Shown: piece after piece, positions 9,829-28,911 of the stretch | How positions within the stretch are numbered: the first letter of the stretch is position 1 | Layout of the letters: each line of letters starts with the position of its first letter | Origin: an uncultured delta proteobacterium | GTDB taxonomy: Bacteria; Desulfobacterota; Desulfomonilia; UBA1062 | Direction of reading: 5' to 3' | NCBI GenBank assembly: GCA_963752595.1 | Contig: CAVVYZ010000001.1 | Span: 288,001 to 352,000 of the forward strand | Length of the DNA stretch: 64,000 nt | Made by a program: the position numbers and the translations under genes | The notes under the pieces: generated by a model | Told to the model about the DNA's origin: nothing | What the model saw: only the letters and a program-made list of their open reading frames with translations | The model's database searches: none

Positions 9829-10062
9829 ATGACAATGCAAGCGAAAAGGTCCACCATATATCTTGATCCCGACCTGCATAAGGCGTTGAAGTTGAAGGCG
9901 GTTGAAACCTCCCGATCCGTATCGGACCTGGTGAACGAGGCCGTCAGAGAATCCCTTGCAGAGGATGCCGAAGACATTCAGGCCTTTGAGGAACGGGTGT
10001 CGGAACCTCTGATCAGCTATGATGAAATGGTCAAGAGGCTGAAAAAAGATGGCCGCATATAA
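9829..10062 (+). CDS. Type II antitoxin, ribbon-helix-helix
   Basis: KRSTIYLDPDLHKALKLKA RHH motif; acidic C-terminus; overlaps a RelE-like gene. Confidence 0.8.
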   Translation: MTMQAKRSTIYLDPDLHKALKLKAVETSRSVSDLVNEAVRESLAEDAEDIQAFEERVSEPLISYDEMVKRLKKDGRI

Positions 10063-10306
10063 GGTCTTTTTCAAGAGATCCGTTGAAAAAGATTTCGAAT
10101 CCATCCCGAAAAAAGACCTCAGGAAAATCCTTGCCCGTATCGAGTCCCTCACGGAAGACCCCCGCCCTTCGGGCAGCGAAAAGCTGACCGGGCTGGAAAG
10201 GTATCGCATCCGTCGGGGACGGTATCGTATCCTGTATTCGATCCGGGATGATGAGCTGACAGTGTGGGTAGTCAAAGCAGGTCATCGGAAAGATGTGTAT
10301 CGGTAA
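10049..10306 (+). CDS. RelE/ParE family toxin
   Basis: YKVFFKRSVEKD, DPRPSGSEKL, YRIRRGRYRILY, GHRKDVYR. Confidence 0.9.
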   Translation: MAAYKVFFKRSVEKDFESIPKKDLRKILARIESLTEDPRPSGSEKLTGLERYRIRRGRYRILYSIRDDELTVWVVKAGHRKDVYR

Positions 10307-11178: not shown

Positions 11179-13834
11179 ATGGATATAGCATTAACAAGAC
11201 TATGGGCAAAGACGACTAGTAACAGTGATGCAGGGTGGCATCCCCTCATTCTTCATATGCTGGATGTGGCTGCCAGTGCGGACGCTATCCTGGCGCGTGA
11301 ACCGGAATCAACCCGCATAAGGATGGCAGCAATTTTGGGGATGGAGTGGGAGGATGCCCGAGCTTGGCTTTTGCTTGTAATAGCCTGCCATGATCTGGGG
11401 AAGGCCTGTCCGGGATTTCAATGCAAGTGGACAAATCATGACAGATCTGGATTCATGCCTCGAAGCCCGAATACCGAGATCAACCATGCCTTTGTGAGCC
11501 AGATCGCCCTTACAGAACTGTTGCAGGAGAGGGGCTGGCCGGATGAATTGGCGGAGTTGGTGGCCGATGCGGTGGGATGTCACCACGGGGAACGGGCTTC
11601 TCCGACAACACTTAACTATCTTGGAAGGCGATAGAGCGTGCCACTTGGCAAGGATGAATGGGCACAAGCGCGTCGAGGGCCTCTTTGAAGCGTTGCTGGA
11701 AGTTCTTAAACCTGTCCAGATTCCCGCCAAACAGACTCTTTCCGGCCCTGACTTCATGCTGCTGTCCGGGCTCACAAGCTTTGCCGACTGGATCGGCTCC
11801 AACGAAGATTGGTTTCCTTTCGGTACTCCGGAGGACTGCGAGGATCTTGCTGGGATGGTTCAATAAGCGCAGAGCCCATGCCGACCAAGCTCTGGATGCA
11901 ATCGGATGGGAACCCCGAACCCCGCTTTCCCCGGAGCCAAAGTCTTTCGAACAGGTTTTTGGCTTTGCTCCCCGTCCCTTGCAGCAGGCTGTTGCCGATG
12001 CTTTGGCTGATGTGAAGGAGCCTGCCATTCTGCTGGTGGAAGCTCCCATGGGCGAGGGCAAGACCGAGGCGGCCTTCTTCGCGCATCTGGAACTGCAGCG
12101 ACGTTTCGGGCACCGCGGCTTGTATGTGGCCTTGCCGACCAAAGCCACCGGAAATGCCATGTTCAAGCGAACCCTGAAATTCTTGCGCCACCAGGGAACG
12201 GATCGAAAGCTCGACCTGCAACTGTTGCACGGCGCGACACTCCTCAACGACACCTTCCAGAATCTGCGTCTTTCGGGCATCCACGATCCCGAAACAGGCG
12301 GTGAGATCCGCGCGGGAGAATGGTTCACCCACAAAAAACGGGCGCTCCTCTCGGAATACGGCGTGGGAACGGTGGACCAGGCGCTCCTGCCCATTCTGCC
12401 TGTGCGGCACAACTTCGTGCGTCTGTGGGGTCTTGCGAACCGTGTGGTGGTCTTCGACGAGATCCATGCATACGATGCCTATACGGGTACGCTCCTGGTT
12501 CACCTGCTGCGCTGGCTTCTGGCACTGGGCTCGTCGGTGGTGCTTCTCTCGGCAACCCTGCCGCCTTCTATTCGACGCAAGTTGGCAGGAGTGGTGGATG
12601 CCGACTTGCCGGAACAAGAGAAGGAATATCCCCGCCTTTCCGTCTTCCGCCCGGGCGCGGTGGAACAAATACATTTCGAGGCCGATCCTGCGCGCCGCCG
12701 GACTCTGCGACTACTAGGGATTCCACCGGACCTGCCGAGCATGCGCTCTGCTCTGGAGGAGCATCTTGCCAATGGTGGAATGGGGCTGGCGCTTGTCAAT
12801 ACGGTGCAGCGAGCCCAGGATCTTTACCGGCTTTTCCCCGAGGGTGAGCACTGGAGCGCGAAGGCCAGCGTGTCGGCAAACGACTGTCCGATGGGACGGA
12901 AGTGTTTCTCTTCCACGCCCGCTTTCCGGCTGATCGACGGCAGAAGCGCGAGGATCATGCCTTGGAGACCTTCGGGCGAAGGCGGAATCAGGACAGGACG
13001 AAAAATCCTCATTGCCACCCAGGTGGCGGAACAGAGCCTTGATCTGGACTTCGACCTGATCGCAACTGACCTCGCGCCTATTGACCTTGTGCTTCAGCGA
13101 GCGGGGCGCTTGTGGCGGCATGCACGGGACTCCAGGCCTGTTTCCGAACCGATCCTCCTGGTAGCGGGACTTGCTGGCGACGAGCCGCCATCATTCGGAA
13201 AGCCACTCTGGTGGGGAGCGGTGTATCGCGAAGATATTCTGTTGCGCACATGGTGTCTTCTTACGAGAGCGACAGAGACACTTGACGCTGCCGGACGAAA
13301 TCGATACCTTGGTGCAAGCGGTTTACGAAGAGCAGGTGGACGTGCCGGAAAACCTGCAGGAGAGACTGGACAAAGCCTTGTTGGAAGGGGAAGGGGAAGA
13401 CATTGCCAAACATGGGCAGGCAAACCAGGCGATAATTGGCTTTCCCGACGATGCATCATGGAACCAGCCGGAGAGATTCGTTCTTTACGACGAAGATGAA
13501 CCTGGCGTGCATCGAACCCTCATGGCCCAGACCAGGCTTGGCGAAGATCGATCGTAGCTATTCCGTTATTTCCGGAAGACGGATTCCGTCCGGAAGCGAC
13601 GCCGGATTTCGCCCAGGCCAAACAGTGGTTCCTGCGGGCCATGAGCCTTTCGCGCAAGGGCGTGGTCAAGAAACTGCAAGGCGCTGGGGGTGCCGGAAGG
13701 CTGGAAGAAATCACCGCTCTTGCGCAATTGCTTCCCGCTGGTGCTGGATGCAGCAGGATCGCTGGACCGAGGATGCAACGGTGCGACTGGATGACGATCT
13801 GGGGCTGGTGTACGAGACAAAGGAGGCCGAATGA
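11179..13834 (+). CDS. cas3: Cas3 HD-nuclease/helicase (several frameshifts)
   Basis: LWAK, HMLDVA, CHDLGK, CHHG, ADWIGS, APMGEGKTEAA, DEIHAYD, SATL, TQVAEQSLDLD, QRAGRLWRH across successive frames. Confidence 0.95.
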
Positions 13835-15451
13835 GCCGATTCAACCTGATTGACGAGAAATGGATCCCGGTGCGGTTCCCTGATGGAACCCGCGACGAAC
13901 TGGGCATCCGCGACACCCTGCTGCGATCGAGGGAGATCGCGGCTATCGAGGACCCGTCCCCGCTGGTGGTGGCTGCCTTGCACCGCTTTCTGCTTGCGGT
14001 CCTGTACCGCGCCTTGGAAGGACCGACCGACATCGATCAGGCCAAGGCACTGTTCAAGGAGGGGATCCAGGCGAAAAAATCACAGCCTACCTGGAAAAGT
14101 GGCGGGATCGGTTCTGGCTGTTCGATGAGAAGTATCCGTTTGGGCAGATTCCCACATTCGAGCCGAAGACCTGGAGAGCTTGGACGTTCTTCGCTGCCGA
14201 GCATAATGCCGACAATGCCAAGGTTCTCTTCGATCACGTGGATGTGACAGAATCTGGTAGTATCAGCTATGCTGCCGCCGCTCGGTGGATGCTGGCCACC
14301 CAGACATTTGCCGTCTCTTCGGGCAAAAGCGAAATCTCTCATACTGGTACAGCTCCATCGGCAGGCTCTGTAATGGTCATTCCTATTGGGTTGAATCTTC
14401 AGGATACACTTTTTTTCTGCCTTGTTCCCCAAAATCGAGAAGTAATGCAAGCTGATATTCCATTGTGGGAAAGAAATCCTGAATCTGTTGAGTACCTGAA
14501 AGCCCCGAATAAAGTGTTAGACAAAAAAACTGGGAAGCAAAAAGATCGAACTGTAGAGAGGGTTTCTAATGGAATTGTAGACCTTTATACATGGAGGACC
14601 CGCTCGATTCTTTTCAAGGAATCACCATCTGGCGATGTTTCCGAGTTGGCTTTTGCTTCTGGTGTTGGGTACAAGGAATCGATGGATATTGACCCAATGC
14701 TCGGGTACCAATTAGGGAAATTACAGATAAAGAAACAAAAGAAAAGTTGAAAAAAAGAGTTACTATTCACCTTGAAGAAAGGGGATTTTGGCGAGATTTT
14801 GATTCCCTGCTCCCCGATGATGATCACCTCGCACCGCAGGTCATTGAACATGCTGTAGCATTACCGGTTGGATCGCAAGAGATTGCCCAGAGCTGTGATG
14901 GTTCTTGGTCAAAGGTATTACCCACCTCGACCAAATATCGAGTACTGGCGAAAGGAACACTTTGCCCTTCCTGAAGCAATGTCGGGGGATCGATATATCC
15001 GTCATGATATTCGAGACATTTTGATAGAGGCCGAGAAAGCTGGAAATCTTTGTGGAATGGTGAAGATGGAATTAAGGCATGCCTTTGTAGTAGTGTAGGG
15101 ATCTTTGCAAATAACTCTGAGTCGGGGTGAACGCGAGCCTGCTGGCAAGGATATTAAAAGCTTTGTCGATCAGTAATGCCGGTTCACTTGGTACTGGTCC
15201 ACCTGGAATCCCGCTTTCACGAAATCCTGCGTGAGTACACCCTTGACCGGGATTCTGAGATATCCGCTGCAGTGGCTGAAGTCTGTCCGGGAAACTTTGA
15301 GAGCCGCATGGGAGCAGCATCGTGCTTCTGTCTCCACGGGTGATGCCTGGGCTATCCGTGCACTTGTGAAAGCTGAAGGGCCAGTACTGGCAAATTGAAG
15401 GAACTGAACGATGAGATTCAAAAACTCGAACCGCAGAAGGAGGACGCATGA
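13831..15451 (+). CDS. cas8e: Type I-E Cascade large subunit Cas8e/Cse1 (frameshifted)
   Basis: FNLIDEKWIPV N-terminus, AAARWML, DLYTWRTR, FWRDFDSLL; position after cas3. Confidence 0.9.
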
Positions 15452-15964
15452 ACGGATTCATCGAATGGCTGGAAGACCTGAATGAGAAAGACACCAAGGT
15501 GAGGGCGGTGCTGCGACGAAGCCTCGCCTTTGATCCGGAGCATTCGTACCCGCTTACCCTTATGTCGAACCCTTCGTGAAGGATGAGGATAATCCTGGCG
15601 GAGGGAGATGTTCTATCTGGTGGCCGGTCTCTGGGCAGCACATTGGCGAGAGGCCGATCGGAGTGAACCGATATCACTCGGGAAGGCGTGTGCAGCTTCA
15701 TCAGAATGGCAAGCGGTTCAACGAGCACCGAACGCCGCTTCATCACCCTGCTGGATGCTGATCCTGACAGTTGCCACACCGTCTGCGCCAGATGATTGCC
15801 CTTCTCAAAGAGCAAGCCATTGATTTCGAAGACCTGTTGAAGGGGCTTCTGTACTGGAACGACGACCAGAAGCGCACCCAGAACGCTGGGCTCGCGACTT
15901 CTACCGAAATCTAGAACAATGAAACAGAAATCGAATCCATAACCGATAAGGAGATCACAAATGA
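15448..15964 (+). CDS. cas11: Cas11/Cse2 small subunit (frameshifted)
   Basis: [38 protein letters not shown] pieces from manual reading; operon position. Confidence 0.8.
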
Positions 15965-17126
15965 AGACAATAATCGAAATTCATGCCTTGCAGAACTTTG
16001 CCCCATCAAACCTGAACCGAGATGACACCGGTGCCCCCAAAGATGCCTTATTTGGTGGCACCCGCCGCGCCCGTGTGTCCAGCCAGTGCCTCAAACGTTC
16101 GGTGCGGCAGTATTTCAAAGATAGTAGAACAAAAGATATGGGTAGCTGATACGAACCAAGCGTATCGTTGATGCTCTGAAGGAACGACTCACGCTGAAGT
16201 TAAAAGACCAGAAGGGACTTCACTGAAGACAATCTGGTGAAGATAATTGAAACCGCTATGTCAAGCCTTGGCGAGCAACAAGAAGGTTACGGTGAAAGGA
16301 AGAGGAAGAGCGAGTATCTCCTGTTCTTGAGCACGCGAAATTCGAAATAGAATTCTCTGCAGAAAGTGGGATCATCACCGCATTCTTATGCTGACTCTGT
16401 CTCAAAGGAAAAAACCGTCAGACCAAGTATAAAGCAGGCTGCAAGATGCCGATCCTGAATTAAAGAAAGCACTGAAAAGTCTTCAACGGTGGAAAGCCGT
16501 TGATGTTGCACTGTTCGGGCGAATGCTGGCCGATATGCCCGAGAAGAACCAGAACGCTGCCTGCCAGGTTGCTCATGCCATTTCGACCCATTCTGTTGAA
16601 CGGGAATTCGACTTCTACACTGCCGTGGACGACCTCAAGCCCGAGGACACCGCCGGTGCTGACATGATGGGTACGGTGGAGTTCAATTCGGCCTGTTTCT
16701 ACCGCTATGCCGTGGTGGACTGGGAAAAACTTGTGGCAAATCTCCAGAATGACAAGGAACTGGCGACCAAGGGACTGCGGGCTTTCCTGGAAGGTTTCGT
16801 GGTGGCCGAACCCACCGGCAAGCAGAACACCTTTGCGGCCCACAATCCACCGGAGTTTGTTGCGGTTTCGGTGCGCCGCAATACCGCACCCCGCAACCTG
16901 GCCAATGCTTTTGAGACTGCCGTCCGCGTGAAAAAGGATGAGTCGCTGACCAGAAAGTCGGCAGAGGAGCTTGCCAAGAAGGCCAAGGCGCTGCAGGCTG
17001 CTTTTGGCGGTGAGGAGAAGACATTCGTTCTCAATCTCGTTGAGGCGAAGTTGAGATGGATTGGGAACGGACGTGGCCACTCTGAAAGATCTTCTCGACA
17101 AGGCCCTTTTGGCCGTACAGGAGTGA
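15961..17126 (+). CDS. cas7: Cas7/Cse4 backbone subunit (middle section garbled)
   Basis: [62 protein letters not shown]. Confidence 0.95.
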
Positions 17127-18492
<1,366 letters not shown>

Positions 18493-18566: not shown

Positions 18567-19406
18567 ATGGAATCGAGACTTGTTGTTTTTAATGATAAAA
18601 AGATAAGGCGCATCCTTCTGGAAAATGTATGGTATTTTGCCGTGGTTGATGTAGTCGCAGCATTGACTGATAGCGATAAGCCACGAGACTATTGGTATCG
18701 TCTAAAAAAACGGGAACTGGAATCAAGTGGAGTTCAGCTGTCGACATATTGTCGACAACTCAAGCTTGAGTCAACCGACGGAAAGAGATACATTACCGAA
18801 GTTGCCAATACCGAAGGCATTTTTCGCATCATCCAGTCTATCCCGTCTCCAAAGGCCGAACCATTCAAACGTTGGTTGGCAAAGGTCGGCTATGATCGGA
18901 TTCAGGAGATCGAAGATCCTGAACTCGCAACGCAGAGGACCAGAGAATTATACAAGGCCAAGGGTTATTCGGAAGAGTGGATCGAAAAGCGGATGCGAGG
19001 AATCACCATTCGCGCAGAGCTCACCGACGAATGGAAAGGCCGCGGTGTAAAGAAAGAACCTGAGTATGCAATCTTGACAGCCGAAATATCCAAGGCAGCA
19101 TTTGGTCTTACCCCTGCAGAATACAAACAATTGAAGGGGCTGGAACGTGAAAATCTCCGCGACCATATGACCGACCTCGAATTGATTTTCTCAATGTTGA
19201 GCGAAGCTGCAACTACGGAGATAACCAGAAAACAGAATGCCCAGGGATATGACCAGAACAAGGATGCGGCACACAAAGGCGGTCGGATTGCAGGCGGAGC
19301 ACGGGAGAAGCTGGAGGCGGAAACCGGCTCGCAGATCGTTTCATCTGAAAACTATCTTGCAGAGCCTGAGAGTGTAAAACGCTTGGGAAGAAGAAAAAAA
19401 CAATGA
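18567..19406 (+). CDS. Bro-N domain DNA-binding protein inserted in the cas operon
   Basis: IRR..WYFAVVDVV, IIQSIPSPKAEPFKRWLA, NLRDHMTDLEL; intact 279-aa ORF. Confidence 0.85.
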   Translation: MESRLVVFNDKKIRRILLENVWYFAVVDVVAALTDSDKPRDYWYRLKKRELESSGVQLSTYCRQLKLESTDGKRYITEVANTEGIFRIIQSIPSPKAEPFKRWLAKVGYDRIQEIEDPELATQRTRELYKAKGYSEEWIEKRMRGITIRAELTDEWKGRGVKKEPEYAILTAEISKAAFGLTPAEYKQLKGLERENLRDHMTDLELIFSMLSEAATTEITRKQNAQGYDQNKDAAHKGGRIAGGAREKLEAETGSQIVSSENYLAEPESVKRLGRRKKQ

Positions 19407-19440: not shown

Positions 19441-20644
<1,204 letters not shown>

Positions 20645-20715: not shown

Positions 20716-23700
20716 GTGTTCCCCACACACGTGGGGATGAACCGATTCACTCAGCGTTTCATGCGCACTCACCAATACGTGTTCCCCACACACGTGGGGA
20801 TGAACCGATCGATTTTCATTGACAACTCATCCGGCATTACGTGTTCCCCACACACGTGGGGATGAACCGGGCATGGGCATAGGCGATAATCGTTAAGATC
20901 AAGTGTTCCCCACACACGTGGGGATGAACCGGACGACCATTTTCTGACGAGCCGCAAGATCGTTGTGTTCCCCACACACGTGGGGATGAACCGGTGGCAG
21001 AATACGGCCAAGCGTGCGATGTCAGGTGTTCCCCACACACGTGGGGATGAACCGTGCTGTGGATAGCAGCCATGACGATTGACAGTCCGTGTTCCCCACA
21101 CACGTGGGGATGAACCGAATTATGGCTGTACAAGATGGCGCAATCGACCGTGTTCCCCACACACGTGGGGATGAACCGGGGATTGACGGACTTAATCAGC
21201 GCAGTACTGGCGTGTTCCCCACACACGTGGGGATGAACCGGCCAGTGGGGTCATGGCGATCATCTGGACGTTCGTGTTCCCCACACACGTGGGGATGAAC
21301 CGCTCAAACTGCAATGGATTGAGTGCTGGGTCGAGCAGTGTTCCCCACACACGTGGGGATGAACCGAGTAACGGCACTTGCAGCTCAGCATACAGCGAGT
21401 GTTCCCCACACACGTGGGGATGAACCGTCTCGTCAACGATCGCCGAGAGTGCGGCGGTCCGGTGTTCCCCACACACGTGGGGATGAACCGTGATCGACGG
21501 CTTCGAGCAATCCTGTCAACCAGTGTTCCCCACACACGTGGGGATGAACCGAACCGTCACTAATCTGTCACAAGCTATGTATCCAGTGTTCCCCACACAC
21601 GTGGGGATGAACCGATGCAGGGCGGCCGCTTGATCTCGAACAGGCAGGTGTTCCCCACACACGTGGGGATGAACCGACCATCAGCTCGACAGAGCAGGAC
21701 GGATACAGGTGTTCCCCACACACGTGGGGATGAACCGTAGGTCAATGTATGCGCTACGTGTCATCGATTCGTGTTCCCCACACACGTGGGGATGAACCGT
21801 AGTTCGACATCTGCCTGAGTAGTCGCGACTATGGTGTTCCCCACACACGTGGGGATGAACCGGATCGGCGAGCGGATGGCGACGCCGGGCAACAGTGTTC
21901 CCCACACACGTGGGGATGAACCGTCGCGAATGTATGGCGAAGCTCCAAGCGTAATCGTGTTCCCCACACACGTGGGGATGAACCGGCATTTCGACTTGAG
22001 CATATGGGCTGTGATCCAGTGTTCCCCACACACGTGGGGATGAACCGCATCAGCGTGCATCGTACGGGCAAGAGCACGATGATATTCCCCACACACGTGG
22101 GGATGAACCGCGGCAGGACGTAGCAGATCGCAGACTGTATGAGTATTCCCCACACACGTGGGGATGAACCGGCTGAGTCAGCCTACGAGTTCAGATGATT
22201 GATGCGTGTTCCCCACACACGTGGGGATGAACCGTCCAGTGCGATGACTCTGATCGCACAGTCCATGAGTATTCCCCACACACGTGGGGATGAACCGTAC
22301 ATACGCTGTTCAAATGCATCCGCGCACGGTACAGTGTTCCCCACACACGTGGGGATGAACCGGTGACTGCCAGATGATGTCGCTCTACGCATGTCAAGTG
22401 TTCCCCACACACGTGGGGATGAACCGCTATGACGCCAGTGTCGCAGCGATCGACAGCGTCACGTGTTCCCCACACACGTGGGGATGAACCGACGCTGGTT
22501 CATGCCGATGCTTCATCATGACGTATTCCCCACACACGTGGGGATGAACCGCACGATGCGACACGTCGAGCATGCACTGGGCCACGTGTTCCCCACACAC
22601 GTGGGGATGAACCGGTACGATTGTTTCAGCCTGCGCATGAACCTGCAGCGTATTCCCCACACACGTGGGGATGAACCGGCTATGGCAAATGCCAAGGCTG
22701 ATCGCGCGTGAGTGTTCCCCACACACGTGGGGATGAACCGAGCTCGGTCAGCTGGCACTGTCATGACCGACGCGTATTCCCCACACACGTGGGGATGAAC
22801 CGTGATGCCGATCACTGCACCTGCGCAGTCACCGATGTGTTCCCCACACACGTGGGGATGAACCGCTATGCAACGATGCGCACAGTGCAGCCAGGCGTGT
22901 GTTCCCCACACACGTGGGGATGAACCGTTAGCAGACTGCAGATCAGCGACGATCAAAGTGAAGTGTTCCCCACACACGTGGGGATGAACCGATCGCGATG
23001 CAGATGAGACGATGGCAGGCGAATGCAGTATTCCCCACACACGTGGGGATGAACCGATCATCAAGCTCGAAGTCGCATGATGATGCATGCAGTATTCCCC
23101 ACACACGTGGGGATGAACCGGATCGTATGCATTGTGAGCGCGATGTCACGGTATGTATTCCCCACACACGTGGGGATGAACCGCGTAGCAATGCGCTGAA
23201 TGTGCATTCGGCTGCAGTATTCCCCACACACGTGGGGATGAACCGTACTGGCCATTGGCGATTCCGCGCTTCCGAACAGTATTCCCCACACACGTGGGGA
23301 TGAACCGCGGCAAGATTGCCCGACGCGCGAGCACATCGATGGTATTCCCCACACACGTGGGGATGAACCGCGTCAGATGGCAAACATGGCCTGTCCTGAG
23401 GAGCAGTGTTCCCCACACACGTGGGGATGAACCGACATCAGATGACACAAGCCGATCCGCCATGCACGTATTCCCCACACACGTGGGGATGAACCGAGCC
23501 AGTCTGGAGAGCACAGACATCGACAACGGAGTGTTCCCCACACACGTGGGGATGAACCGATATCGAGGCAGTGGCGAATACGGCGATGTCGAGTGTTCCC
23601 CACACACGTGGGGATGAACCGGCTGGAGATGATCCGGATCGTCGGAGCCGCAGGTGTGTTCCCCACACACGTGGGGATGAACCGTGCAGATCGCTGACGG

Positions 23701-26033
23701 TGGCATACGGATGACTGCAGTGTTCCCCACACACGTGGGGATGAACCGCGTGCCGGAGCATACCATGCGGAATAGGCGATGCGTGTTCCCCACACACGTG
23801 GGGATGAACCGCAACGATCGGACCACGAATCAGCGATGGAACAGTGTTCCCCACACACGTGGGGATGAACCGGTCAGCGGCCTGCGAGGCCAGCGAATGC
23901 AGCTGATGTGTTCCCCACACACGTGGGGATGAACCGCACGTTCGAGCACCCGAGTGCCGGCAGAACACGTGTTCCCCACACACGTGGGGATGAACCGCCT
24001 GCCAGAATGGATGAGTATCGACAACAGTCGAGTGTTCCCCACACACGTGGGGATGAACCGGCACGCGGCGATGCAGCCGCTGATGGACATCGAAGTGTTC
24101 CCCACACACGTGGGGATGAACCGAATCAGGCGTGGCAACTGTCATCAAGCGGTACAGCGTGTTCCCCACACACGTGGGGATGAACCGTCCATTACCGGAC
24201 GTCATACCAGGATCACGCAGAGTGTTCCCCACACACGTGGGGATGAACCGACGCTGGAAGCCGTGCGAGTCACTTCTGGAAGTGTTCCCCACACACGTGG
24301 GGATGAACCGATGTATGCTGGAATCGAGCACGAGCGCTGAATACGTGTTCCCCACACACGTGGGGATGAACCGGACTGATGCCTACAGGACAGCACAGCG
24401 TATCATGGTGTTCCCCACACACGTGGGGATGAACCGTGTCGCGACATATCGCCACGCTCGCAGCTATACGTGTTCCCCACACACGTGGGGATGAACCGGT
24501 CGATCGTGGCGATCGCAGCCATGTCTGATCGTGTTCCCCACACACGTGGGGATGAACCGATAGAATCGACACGGCAGTCTGATCCGCTATGGAGTGTTCC
24601 CCACACACGTGGGGATGAACCGGCGATATCAATACATGCAGTGCCGATGAGTACCGTGTTCCCCACACACGTGGGGATGAACCGCGCGGATGATCAGCTC
24701 ATGAGCATGCGGATGCACGTGTTCCCCACACACGTGGGGATGAACCGGCAATGCTTGTCGAGTTCAGCGGCATCTGGTTCGGTGTTCCCCACACACGTGG
24801 GGATGAACCGGTGATCTTGTCATGTATCGATGCCAGCTCGTGCGAGTGTTCCCCACACACGTGGGGATGAACCGATCGAGCACGAATCAGGCGCATGAGC
24901 GAAGCATCGTGTTCCCCACACACGTGGGGATGAACCGGATCGACAGGCTGTATGACGACGATGAGCAAGCGTGTTCCCCACACACGTGGGGATGAACCGG
25001 ATAGCATCAGCGACTCGCCGTCAATTGTCTGATGTGTTCCCCACACACGTGGGGATGAACCGACTATCATGACGTACTGTACGAGTGCATCAGTGTGTGT
25101 TCCCCACACACGTGGGGATGAACCGTCGATGTAATAGATGCCGACTGCGTCATCAGTGTGTTCCCCACACACGTGGGGATGAACCGGTAGATCGTACCGG
25201 TCCCGATGACTGCTCGTCAGTGTTCCCCACACACGTGGGGATGAACCGAAAATGGGCATGCTCAAGATAAGACACAGGGGAGTGTTCCCCACACACGTGG
25301 GGATGAACCGGCATTCGCGCTGATCCGGCAGCCTGCACAGATGTGTTCCCCACACACGTGGGGATGAACCGGTATTCAACGACAACATGACCCATGGCGA
25401 ATGTGTTCCCCACACACGTGGGGATGAACCGCGAGGGACATATGCGCAGGTTACGTATCAGGATAGTGTTCCCCACACACGTGGGGATGAACCGGCTGCG
25501 TTGCATCGGGACGGTCTGCCAGCTGACGTGTTCCCCACACACGTGGGGATGAACCGGCCTGTCACCGGCATAGCGCAGCGGCAACCCAGTGTGTTCCCCA
25601 CACACGTGGGGATGAACCGATGCACGCGATACGGCAGGCACAGCCCAGATCGTGTTCCCCACACACGTGGGGATGAACCGGATATAGCCGATCTTATAAG
25701 CAATCGCAACGGAGTGTTCCCCACACACGTGGGGATGAACCGCCGGCGATGCGGATCGCCGTGCTGCCGCCGCTGTCGGTGTTCCCCACACACGTGGGGA
25801 TGAACCGCGGGACAGATCGGTTATATATGTTGGCAAGTGTTCCCCACACACGTGGGGATGAACCGCCTCGATCTAGACCTGCAGGCCGTACCTATCGTGT
25901 TCCCCACACACGTGGGGATGAACCGGACACGCTGAGGGCTGGCCTCCATATTGTATCAGTGTTCCCCACACACGTGGGGATGAACCGGTTGCATATAGCC
26001 TGTCGGCTGATATTATACGATTCAATCCATCCA

Positions 26034-26062
26034 TTGACATAGGGGAGGTACAGTAATATGAT
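26034..26062 (+). promoter_or_regulatory. Putative sigma70 promoter inside the giant spacer
   Basis: TTGACA (26034-26039), 17 bp, TATGAT (26057-26062); RBS GGGAGG at 26079-26084 before ATG 26091. Confidence 0.7.
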
Positions 26063-26090
26063 AACCCTTTCATATATCGGGAGGTTTCTT

Positions 26091-27578
26091 ATGAAGAGGG
26101 TTGTCATGCCGTCTCTGATGGTGTGCGTCGTTTTCACGGCCTGCTATGCGGGATGGCTTTCAGGGTACAGTAGACGAGCCAAGATAGAAGCGTCCAATGA
26201 GACTGCTCTTGCCGATCAGGTGATGCAGTTGGATATGTATTACAATGTTCCCCTGATTGAGGGTGATGGGATATTGAGAAGAAATGCGATACCAACATTC
26301 AAATATTCAGGCACTCACAGTAGAACTTACTTCGGCTTCTATGATACGAACGCCACCATTAAAATACGTTACTTTGATAATACAACAAAGGCACTCAGCG
26401 CCGCAACAACGATTGTATCAAGTTGGGGCAGCGGGGATGATCATTCTGTACCGTCTGTAATCGTCTTGCAGCGACAAACGGGCGATTACGCAAGTCACAA
26501 TGGTAAAGTCCTTGTGGCTGCTGGTGAGCATGGAACCGTATTAAATGGAAGGGTGATGGGGTGGAGGTCATCTAGCGCGGAGTCGATTTCCTCTTTTGAG
26601 ACTGGAGTCAGCATAGAGGACAAGAGTGGGACGTACACGTTCCTTGTTGAAGATAGCGCCGGTAAAATATATCTATTCTATCGTCTTACAAGTTTTCCTA
26701 GTGTGAATCACTTTTCTTGGTATTATAAGACGTCTACGGATGCTGGCACAACATGGAGTTCAAGAACCCTGCTATGGGATGCAGGAGATGCTCATTCGTA
26801 TATCATGGTCTACCCGACTAATGGAGGCGAGGATATACATCTCGCTTTCAATGCAGCTTTTCACGGCGAGCCATATGTCGGGTACAGCAGATATAGAGAC
26901 ATATATTATGCAAGATATGATGTATCCGGGGCAAAGTGGTACAAGGCCGACGGAACCACTGAAATAGCCCTGCCGATGGACACATCCACCGCAGGGAGTA
27001 TTCCCGATGTTGTTCATACCACCGCAGCGACCCATTGGGAATTTCTAGGTGAAGTAAAGGTCATCGACGGATCGCCATACATACTGTCATTTGATGAGGT
27101 TCCGACAGATAACTACCCGTCATCATACGTGCATAGCGATGGGAATGTGTTTTACCACTACTATTCTGGCGGAACGTGGCATACCGAAACAGTTTGTGGC
27201 ACCGGACGATTCGGAACATACAACTATCAGGCCGGGGCAACACTCGACGCCTGGGATGAAAATGTAATCTATGCCTGTGTACCCGATGGAAGTGGTCTTA
27301 CCCAAATGCAGAAATGGGAGAAGGATGGGACATGGGGTAAGACAGAAGATATCACTCAGGCTAGTTCCGGCGATCATTTCTGGCCCTCCTTTGTAAATGG
27401 AGCATCATCCACAGACCTCTTCAAAGTCCTTTGGTGCTACACCGAGAATTACACCATGTATGATGATGGACATTGGACATCATCATTAATGGCCTATCCC
27501 GGCTATAACAATAGCTCAAACATAAAACTCAATAAGGATTCTCGAGTGTTCCCCACACACGTGGGGATGAACCGGTGA
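26091..27578 (+). CDS. Secreted BNR/Asp-box beta-propeller protein (BNR_4-like) embedded in the array; C-terminus supplied by the repeat
   Basis: Signal peptide MKRVV...ACYA; DDHSVPS, GKIYLFYR, STDAGTTWS (Asp-box); ends ...[15 protein letters not shown]. Alternative start at 26058. Confidence 0.75.
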   Translation: MKRVVMPSLMVCVVFTACYAGWLSGYSRRAKIEASNETALADQVMQLDMYYNVPLIEGDGILRRNAIPTFKYSGTHSRTYFGFYDTNATIKIRYFDNTTKALSAATTIVSSWGSGDDHSVPSVIVLQRQTGDYASHNGKVLVAAGEHGTVLNGRVMGWRSSSAESISSFETGVSIEDKSGTYTFLVEDSAGKIYLFYRLTSFPSVNHFSWYYKTSTDAGTTWSSRTLLWDAGDAHSYIMVYPTNGGEDIHLAFNAAFHGEPYVGYSRYRDIYYARYDVSGAKWYKADGTTEIALPMDTSTAGSIPDVVHTTAATHWEFLGEVKVIDGSPYILSFDEVPTDNYPSSYVHSDGNVFYHYYSGGTWHTETVCGTGRFGTYNYQAGATLDAWDENVIYACVPDGSGLTQMQKWEKDGTWGKTEDITQASSGDHFWPSFVNGASSTDLFKVLWCYTENYTMYDDGHWTSSLMAYPGYNNSSNIKLNKDSRVFPTHVGMNR

Positions 27579-27790
27579 GTGGTACGGCAAGCACCATGAG
27601 GGCATAGTGTTCCCCACACACGTGGGGATGAACCGTACGGCTACCCGGCCATTGCCACGCACTTCCTGTGTTCCCCACACACGTGGGGATGAAACGAGAG
27701 ACCCAGATGCAAGATGGAAGAGTGAAAATGGAGAGAGCGCCCAAAGGGAGATACATGAAAGAGTTTCGCGAGGAATAGGAATAGCTCAAC

Positions 27791-27828
27791 CCTGAGCGTC
27801 CCCCGGCTTTGCCGGGGGACTGCTCGGG
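27791..27828. terminator. Strong hairpin between the array and the convergent formate-channel gene
   Basis: gtcccccggc-ttt-gccgggggac perfect 10-bp stem, extended by cctgagc/gctcggg; no clear U-tract. Confidence 0.45.
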
Positions 27829-27887
27829 GAAATTTGCTTGCCTAACCTACTGCAGCAAAGCCGAGGTAAGGGTTTCTTGGGAACTCA

Positions 27888-28715
27888 CTATGACGGTGAC
27901 ATCGTGGACAGCTCTTTTTTAAAGGAATAGAAATAGACGGCACCGATAAAGATGAATCCACCCACAATATTTCCTATTGTTACAGGGATTAAGTTCCACT
28001 GGATGAATTGCGTCCATGAGACATTGGCACCCAACATGATGCCTGCGGGAATGAAATACATGTTTGCGACGCAGTGCTCAAAACCTGAGGAGACGAATGC
28101 CATGATGGGAAACCATATGCCGAAAAACTTTCCGACCATGGACTTTGATGAAAAAGCAAGCAATATTGCAACATTTACGAGCAGGTTACAGGCTATACCC
28201 TTCATGAATGCAGACCAGAGGCCGATGGTACCGGCTGCGATGTAAGGGAGAGTCTTTGCCTCTGCAATAGCGATGGCATTTTGTCCGAAGACCGTTAATT
28301 CCGGGCCGCCGCCTTTGCTGAAGGGACCGACAACCATCAGGTATGCCCAGAAAAGGGAACCGATAAAATTTCCAATATAGACCCAAAACCAGGCATTCCA
28401 CACTTTGCTCCACGTGGATTTTTTTTGAAAGACAGCCATAGGAATAAGCATCGTATCGCCGGTAAAGAGTGACATGCCTGTAAGTACGATGGCAATAAGG
28501 CCTACAGGGAAGACCGCGCCTGCGATAAGGGCCTTGAACCCGGGACCCACTGTTGTATCCAATCCTGTACCGCAGACGGTACAGAGTGCGCCGCCTACCG
28601 CGATAAAAAGCCCTGCCATGAAACTTCTTACCAGGAAATTGCTGGCACCTAAGTTTGCCTTATACATCCCTGCATTTCCAGCCAATTCAACGATTTCAAC
28701 GGGTTTGTGAGCCAT
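27888..28715 (-). CDS. Formate/nitrite transporter (FNT; FdhC/FocA family)
   Basis: VFPVGL, LFTG, GNFIGS, GIACNLLV, GFEHCVANMY, GNIVGG. Confidence 0.92.
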   Translation of the reverse strand: MAHKPVEIVELAGNAGMYKANLGASNFLVRSFMAGLFIAVGGALCTVCGTGLDTTVGPGFKALIAGAVFPVGLIAIVLTGMSLFTGDTMLIPMAVFQKKSTWSKVWNAWFWVYIGNFIGSLFWAYLMVVGPFSKGGGPELTVFGQNAIAIAEAKTLPYIAAGTIGLWSAFMKGIACNLLVNVAILLAFSSKSMVGKFFGIWFPIMAFVSSGFEHCVANMYFIPAGIMLGANVSWTQFIQWNLIPVTIGNIVGGFIFIGAVYFYSFKKELSTMSPS

Positions 28716-28911
28716 TTGTTCCTCCTCAAAGTTGATTAGAACTTTCTTTGTGATTCCGGGAGTATATGAAGTAGGAATTTGTGTGTCAAGGAGATTCCGG
28801 CCACAGGGGAAATACCCGAAAGAAGTGCGGATTGTTCATATTAAAAAGTTGATTCACTTTAGTCTTTGTTGTTAGTTTGTTTTAAAAATCATATTTTGCG
28901 GGAGGAATAAG

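Follow-up and report, generated by a model that had tools for sequence, protein, structure and literature searches.

Gene content and layout of the locus

The window, by which we mean the whole 64,000-nucleotide stretch of DNA analyzed here, holds a type I-E CRISPR-Cas locus, recognized from Pfam matches and from the sequence itself, in which cas3-cas8e-cas11-cas7-cas5-cas6e-cas1-cas2 lie beside an array of 29-nucleotide (nt) hairpin repeats. All on the forward strand, cas3, cas8e, cas11, cas7, and cas5 (positions 11179 to 17821; assigned by Pfam and by frameshift-aware alignment to homologues) are followed by cas6e (17814 to 18492), the only PF08798 gene found in the genome, which carries four one-base insertions as assembled, by an intact Bro-N domain gene within the cas operon (18567 to 19406), and by cas1, with two indels, and cas2, an intact open reading frame (ORF) (together, 19441 to 20644). 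The Bro-N gene, a possible regulator or cargo, sits in the same place between cas6e and cas1 in genome G019 and at locus L052. Just upstream of cas3, a ParE/RelE-type toxin gene of a toxin-antitoxin system was found (10049 to 10306). Elsewhere in the genome (G000:C7:51400-64600) lies a second CRISPR system with a different repeat, which includes an intact cas1, an adjoining reverse-transcriptase-like ORF, and Cmr-like genes (the latter two named from sequence motifs); an IS-like ORF adjoins its array end.

The array consists of 88 copies of the 29-nt repeat (20716 to 27696), and its orientation is supported both by the end of cas2 at 20644, which adjoins repeat 1, and by the degeneracy of the last repeat, number 88. 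Repeats 1 to 85 and spacers 1 to 84 occupy positions 20716 to 25987 of the forward strand, with spacer sequences that are unreliable (29 to 36 nt, poor in homopolymers). Within this part, repeats 23 to 45 (22082 to 23496) include a block with the variant start GTATTC (12 copies) and a single ATATTC, reflecting either a real variant lineage or an effect of polishing. Between the end of repeat 85 (25987) and the start of repeat 86 (27546), the spacer slot measures 1,558 bp (25988 to 27545, forward strand; GC content, 0.46; single copy in the assembly). This is not a canonical spacer of 32 to 33 nt; across 52 related arrays, 1,843 of 2,007 gaps between repeats measured 32 nt. Repeats 85 and 86 are both perfect and complete copies, and the insert junctions fall exactly at the repeat borders. 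Beyond the insert, the array continues on the same strand with two 32-nt spacers, repeat 87, and the degenerate terminal repeat 88 (27575 to 27696), which makes the insert the third-oldest slot. A strong G+C hairpin at 27790 to 27829 (z, -3.4 for 27696 to 27840), located 3' of both the array and a convergent formate/nitrite transporter gene, is a likely terminator. Homology to the related genome G004 starts at 27783. No Rfam match was found within 25900 to 28900.

Promoter match and start region of the captured gene

A single ORF of 495 codons, co-oriented with the array, fills the insert. The sequence-only reading had reported a promoter, a ribosome-binding site (RBS), and this ORF, and all of its coordinates were correct: a -35 box, TTGACA, at 26034 to 26039; 17 nt further on, a -10 box, TATGAT, at 26057 to 26062; GGGAGG as RBS at 26079 to 26084; and the ATG at 26091. 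The sigma70-type promoter match (26034 to 26062, forward strand) scores 11/12, and since only 61 sites scoring at least 11/12 occur in 8.25 Mb (both genome strands), with about 0.001 expected in the 140 nt before a given ATG, it goes beyond chance. The in-frame extension upstream of the ATG, MITLSYIGRFLM, resembles MIIQSCYIARWIM of homologue P0004, a likeness which, going by a back-translation of P0004, suggests that the promoter-RBS region probably arrived with the gene and is native to it. Given this rare promoter match, the RBS, and an ORF free of frameshifts against three homologues, the claim that the gene looks expressible holds at the sequence level.

An imperfect inverted repeat of 17 bp (26058 to 26107, forward strand) spans the -10 box through codon 6 and holds the RBS in its loop (z, -2.6; 3 of 200 shuffles, for a region that was picked after being seen); it may act as an operator or, in read-through transcripts, as a hairpin that masks the start codon. 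In folding predictions, the AUG was 1% unpaired in leader-derived RNA versus 17 to 52% for transcripts starting at 26068 to 26070. With the AUG thus predicted to be buried in the leader-driven transcript, protein should come mainly from the internal promoter, and the long leader-driven RNA is, by this model, unlikely to be the translated species.

On the opposite strand, a possible divergent promoter, ATGTCA-17-TATAAT (10/12; 26012 to 26040, directed toward the array; 0.064 such sites per kb in the genome), with a perfect TATAAT, would drive antisense transcription of the younger part of the array. As this candidate reaches into the first 32 nt of the insert, those bases seem to stem from the same donor intergenic region.

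The ORF is cut off at a repeat border

The captured part of the gene comprises 485 codons (26091 to 27545, forward strand), encoding a signal peptide, an N-terminal piece of a DUF2341-associated module, a BNR_4/PL25-like beta-propeller, and a linker. As had also been read from the sequence, translation then passes in frame through repeat 86 and ends in the next spacer (27546 to 27578), so that repeat 86 and spacer 86 add a 10-residue tail before the TGA at 27576 to 27578.

Judged by its homologues, the ORF represents only the 5' part of a longer gene. In the two full-length homologues nearest to it (48% and 47% identity), the alignment holds up to the last codon before the repeat, past which both continue, reading IKLNKTSR-SDFGDLRFT and LKLNKNSR-TDFGDIRFT across the equivalent of the repeat border (hyphen). 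When 29 homologues picked from the top of the match lists were aligned, 15 carried a DUF2341-type motif right past the junction point, 13 were propeller-only proteins that end just past the last blade, without the linker, and 1, on a short contig, ended earlier; the end point of our ORF was matched by none of the 29. All 15 homologues that share the linker run into DUF2341 where the repeat begins here, and in one of them, P0003, the Pfam DUF2341 domain starts at residue 480, two residues past the junction-equivalent R478. Protein homology extends to the last codon before repeat 86, and for the first 103 nt of the insert no homologue was identified. General decay of the ORF was ruled out: 4 of 44 conserved columns deviate, which is within the range of close homologues and no excess over them.

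A polysaccharide-lyase-like propeller

The encoded protein has a hydrophobic N-terminus (signal peptide, approximately residues 1 to 20) and no transmembrane stretch further on. A BNR_4 match marks the beta-propeller, which is complete (approximately residues 48 to 472), the linker behind it being cut just before DUF2341. Compared with solved structures, the predicted model (pLDDT, 84.7 overall) best matched seven-bladed propellers, namely, PL25 ulvan lyase, GH145, PL42, and PL24, with 5uas as the top match (E, 6e-18; TM, 0.63 to 0.70; identity, about 15%), so that model and structure comparison together assign a PL25 beta-propeller fold; by sequence, an identity of 15% is too low to place the protein in the PL25 family. 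Among viral structures, the best matches include a minor tail protein. In a profile alignment, with the numbering worked out by hand, H118, Y182, and R198 correspond to PL25 His123, Tyr188, and Arg204 (for the catalytic roles of the PL25 residues, see PMC8377490) and are likely catalytic, and H147 fits PL25 His143 by motif, a pair that the profile alignment left unpaired. The protein thus resembles the PL25 ulvan lyase PLSV_3936 and the GH145, PL42, and PL24 enzymes in its fold and in the aligned His, Tyr, and Arg of the PL25 site, and it differs from PLSV_3936, in addition to the low identity, in that the propeller lies within a DUF2341-associated module and in that Arg431, the near-invariant Arg of an RP motif, is replaced here by Trp431, one base away from an Arg codon. 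On the strength of the model, we consider the insert to encode a predicted secreted polysaccharide-lyase-like protein.

P0003, P0004, P0007, P0009, and their relatives form a family of proteins that carry an inserted PL25-like propeller immediately ahead of the Pfam DUF2341 core. Members of this propeller-DUF2341 family were found both in a surface-polysaccharide island of a bacterium and in a phage-like module.

The completeness and modeled quality of the propeller, the three aligned active-site residues, the rarity of the promoter match, and the occurrence among the homologues of natural propeller-only proteins with a similar end point (13 of 29) would all agree with a working secreted lyase that was kept for use, made in full with its 10-residue tail, with the array serving merely as a landing site and with Cas6e either too slow on translated RNA or dead, as its frameshifts in the assembly might indicate. 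We regard this as unlikely, if the best of the alternatives: the near-invariant Arg is Trp431, the indels in the cas genes look like errors and not decay (see below), and no close homologue was found in 51 family genomes, leaving no sign that the lineage depends on the protein.

Quality of the assembly and state of cas6e

The six cas genes compared by frameshift-aware alignment (cas11 excluded) contain 35 to 36 single-base indels in about 7.7 kb, or about 4.5 per kb, with frameshifts as assembled distributed over cas3 (10), cas8e (9), cas7 (6 to 7), cas5 (4), cas6e (4), and cas1 (2), versus a background that does not exceed 0.27 per kb (17 frame changes over 63 kb of alignment, with cas1 counted three times). 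Three in-frame stops inside cas8e, cas7, and cas5 are located among the frameshift calls. The adjoining spacers 1 to 84 are likewise aberrant: only 13 of the 84 measure 32 nt, they are without homopolymers, and their mutual likeness is above that of shuffled sequences. The fraction of adjacent identical bases in these spacers is 0.11 to 0.19 versus 0.22 to 0.29 in eight loci of relatives, whose spacers are 32 nt almost throughout. From these patterns, the noise in the upstream cas genes and in spacers 1 to 84 looks like consensus blurring, not biology. Moreover, codons 14 to 170 of cas1 (157 codons) differ from those of a relative by 60 synonymous and 10 nonsynonymous changes, with no stops, which argues for errors rather than decay as the source of the cas indels; cas6e, as far as can be judged from the sequence, is probably intact. 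Spacers 1 to 84 of this assembly are unsuited to target searches, and a similar spread of spacer lengths was seen in arrays L034, L045, and L103.

The insert and the two oldest spacers, by comparison, are clean, the chance of finding no indel there at the cas rate being 0.002. The fraction of adjacent identical bases is 0.176 for spacers 71 to 84 versus 0.109 for spacers 51 to 70, and this rise in quality toward the insert is as expected if reads were anchored in the insert. In one DNA run, we found near-identical contigs downstream of the array, with the insert and its junctions uncovered at a depth of 2 to 3, an outcome that speaks neither for nor against the insert. Foreign sequence joined into the array by a noisy consensus would be consistent with the blurred spacers, with the excess of indels in the cas genes, and with our finding no independent copy of the insert, and yet we consider such an artifact improbable, somewhat more so than a lyase kept for use: a random chimera is unlikely to produce two joins that both coincide with repeat borders, the spacers gain in quality the closer they lie to the insert, the trailer runs on into host DNA that is syntenic with G004, and a mis-join in the assembly graph via two real spacers needs a protospacer-adjacent motif (PAM) before the last 32 nt, where ATA was found and not AAG, the type I-E PAM. 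The sequence thus favors an insert that is probably real.

Probable foreign origin of the insert

At third codon positions, the insert ORF has a GC content (GC3) of 0.47 versus a median of 0.66, a value within the bottom 3% for 1,223 long ORFs (a set that includes shadow ORFs). On the basis of this composition and of its absence elsewhere in the 84%-complete genome, the insert is likely foreign DNA, and the low GC3, the single copy, and a gene severed just before DUF2341 fit a foreign origin with an arbitrary cut point in the donor. An origin from within the genome was rejected, as no 3' remainder carrying the missing DUF2341 part was found elsewhere in it at 84% completeness. The closest homologue with genomic context lies in a relative's chromosome (L001; housekeeping proteins 62 to 86% identical), ahead of glycosyltransferase and O-antigen polymerase genes, and another lies in a phage-like structural module (L002). 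Together with the low GC3, these contexts point to a phage, a plasmid, or a surface-polysaccharide island as the likely donor.

Searches for that donor returned no protein with more than 50% identity among near-length, shorter, or longer candidates. An alignment search with four rows found no relative of the insert in viral contigs or genome contigs, two pieces of the insert and the two oldest spacers had no exact match in viral contigs, annotated phages did not match the insert, and plasmids gave only haloarchaeal matches of 26 to 30%. A propeller homologue was present in none of the 51 family genomes (two of which had DUF2341-only matches), and weak partial matches were found in 2 of 400 phylum genomes. 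The spacers of the window, 1 to 84 of which are too error-prone for a fair test, matched neither L001 or L002 nor the rest of the genome, and none of them, with the same proviso for spacers 1 to 84, was shared with 349 spacers of relatives.

Probable route of capture

Our best explanation, which we hold with a probability of about 68%, is that the insert is a kilobase pseudo-spacer carrying a truncated gene, a passenger whose output would be passively dampened and not a selected switch. A piece of likely foreign DNA would have been joined at both ends exactly to repeat borders by a CRISPR-linked event, likely early in the life of the array, as the third-oldest slot implies. The likeliest such event would be integration of an untrimmed piece by Cas1-Cas2, which we prefer by a modest margin (about three to two) to a one-sided recombination through a matching 5' spacer, that is, the first 32 nt of the insert. 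In either case, the 3' part of the gene, encoding DUF2341, would have been left behind, such that translation enters repeat 86 and ends at the first stop met.

Several other routes were rejected. Insertion of an IS element or transposon would have involved a transposase, terminal inverted repeats, or a target duplication, none of which was found; indeed, the insert contains no terminal duplication, no terminal inverted repeat, and no repeat remnant. Prophage integration in a repeat, or use of a repeat as attB, was dismissed because the flanking repeats are perfect, with no attL/attR hybrids, and because the insert contains no integrase. Recombination through two spacers is unlikely here, as there is no terminal repeat and as ATA precedes the last 32 nt. 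RNA capture by the second, reverse-transcriptase-linked Cas1 of this genome was rejected since that system uses a different repeat and since the insert includes DNA upstream of the promoter. Counting against the capture model itself, 1.56 kb is far outside the 32-nt ruler, and an insert that keeps its promoter, signal peptide, and whole propeller also fits a recent capture or retention for use.

Expected fate of the transcript

The repeat has no stop codon in two frames, and in the third its stop lies at nt 23, past the Cas6e cut, which we take to fall after nt 21 (27566/27567 in repeat 86) by the E. coli type I-E rule (8-nt handle, ATGAACCG). Among the loci examined, a stop codon ahead of the cut site was found in none of 42 repeat variants in any frame. 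Any co-oriented ORF that loses its end at a repeat of this kind will therefore automatically terminate past the cut, and the stop past the Cas6e cut seen here follows from a gene cut off at a repeat. The TGA used here is the first possible codon past the repeat; among 2,097 repeat-spacer units taken from loci other than this one, some of which overlap, only 4% share this feature, a detail in favor of the sequence-only reading. In its context, the C-G stem of repeat 86 was predicted to form with a probability of 0.66 to 0.99.

Provided that the promoter is used and Cas6e functions, cleavage at 27566/27567 would turn some of the mRNA into a nonstop RNA, as the sequence-only reading had proposed; this RNA would measure 1.5 kb. 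The genome does contain a tmRNA gene, whose tag reads ADDYSYALAA. From the internal promoter, the cut RNA would be 1,498 nt long, ending in frame after VFPTHVG, while a leader-derived RNA would, after cleavage at both repeats, be 1,587 nt long with a normal 8-nt handle, resembling a crRNA. Ribosomes and Cas6e would compete for such RNA, and products rescued by tmRNA are degraded. Cut transcripts would accordingly be rescued and their product lost, and ribosomes outrunning Cas6e would make the propeller with its 10-residue tail. The insert would thus be a passenger with its output passively dampened by CRISPR processing. The internal promoter may also boost the two oldest spacers.

That the arrangement meaningfully ties protein output to Cas6e activity, as had been suggested, was not borne out, since the position of the stop is automatic and since the same situation recurs in the unrelated phage-derived insert of L038 (see below). 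Neither the placement of the stop nor conservation goes beyond what truncation brings about: all 42 repeat variants give this outcome, and the insert was found in 0 of 11 genus genomes. Nothing in these data points to selection for the link. Coupling of the gene to Cas6e is possible but unsupported. An evolved circuit, in which Cas6e processing sets enzyme output and the internal promoter is retained as a booster of the two oldest spacers, is very unlikely. In its favor, promoter, tmRNA gene, and an ORF running through an intact repeat are all present in the sequence, the nearest possible stop is used, and the insert has stayed in place through the addition of up to 84 later spacers. Against it, the stop position is automatic, the arrangement occurs in one genome only, spacers at the trailer end are in any case the part of an array that changes least (PMC4524480), and Cas6e is not known as a regulated signal here. 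In the same far-fetched range we place the broader idea that the CRISPR integrase trimmed a two-domain protein to its catalytic propeller and so created a natural Cas6e-throttled mRNA, from which a secreted lyase would be made whenever Cas6e runs short or is inhibited; if true, the array would act as both a gene-capture site and a regulator.

Precedents and a second case

In our judgment, the insert is a bacterial example of the known pseudo-spacer architecture, with an intact-looking catalytic domain. The precedent is SiL-E1, a pseudo-spacer in CRISPR_2 of Sulfolobus islandicus LAL14/1 (Jaubert et al. 2013, PMC3718332), with which it shares kilobase foreign DNA (1.9 kb in SiL-E1) lying exactly between two complete repeats, further spacer-repeat units after it, and strain specificity. 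It differs from SiL-E1 in that its array is a bacterial one of type I-E that keeps strictly to a 32-nt ruler and in that it holds one truncated, co-oriented gene with its own promoter that is read into the repeat; also, SiL-E1 is 82% identical to pING1-like plasmids, whereas our searches yielded no donor. For SiL-E1, the same two routes as those weighed here were proposed, namely, faulty processing of a protospacer or recombination with existing spacers (PMC3718332).

Spacers of at least 100 nt have been described in arrays of E. coli, P. aeruginosa, and S. thermophilus, type I-E arrays included (Kupczok et al. 2015, PMC4524480), and these are likewise oversized inserts in a spacer slot; most of them are transposon-like, unlike the present insert, which lacks a transposase, terminal repeats, and a target duplication. 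Foreign DNA is also reported to enter arrays through recombination between a spacer and its target in phage DNA (Varble et al. 2019, Nat Microbiol 4:956) and through integration of prophages into repeats (bioRxiv 10.1101/2020.10.09.333658), and such DNA can change the expression of downstream spacers. In contrast to those cases, the present insert has neither a duplicated spacer nor an integrase, its flanking repeats are not split, and AAG is absent in front of its last 32 nt; integration of a prophage into a repeat proceeds by another mechanism. Engineered control of mRNA by a Cas6 protein, Csy4 (Borchardt et al. 2015, PMC4604432), is similar in that a repeat hairpin makes the fate of an mRNA Cas6 dependent, but that system is synthetic, mammalian, and based on Cas6f, while the hairpin here would lie within the last codons by an accident of truncation. 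No natural Cas6-regulated gene was found in the literature searched, which took in a minority of the subscription papers.

A second gene-sized insert was found in 1 of 52 partial arrays among 80 loci identified with cas7. In this independent type I-E array (L038; MGPQ01000018.1), a 2,802-bp fragment of Mu-like phage head genes (gpF, gpG/S, and gpI) lies between two repeats (13472 to 16273), and the last ORF of the insert, encoding a Mu-like protease, also stops inside the repeat. AAG precedes its last 32 nt; the final base of the repeat upstream is T, and ATGAACC is common to that repeat and a phage reading frame. From its sequence, it looks like a scar of spacer-target recombination, or else a short-read mis-join; with its AAG and its altered repeat end, it fits the recombination pattern better than the present insert does. 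At L073 (13315 to 13489), about 115 bp of extra DNA apparently lies inside a repeat of a type I-E array.

What the insert means for type I-E arrays

As a regulatory system, the feature is unsupported; what had been noticed are real features with an ordinary cause. The insert adds one more natural record of a strict-ruler type I-E array taking up a gene-sized piece of DNA precisely at its repeat borders. In print, this path of gene transfer has been described once, for Sulfolobus, and its mechanism is not solved. A general rule also follows: a co-oriented gene truncated at a type I-E repeat would give a nonstop mRNA once processed, and with no stop before the cut in type I-E repeats, arrays would tend to silence such cargo. 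The construct found here may serve as a ready test of the competition between Cas6e and ribosomes on a translated repeat.
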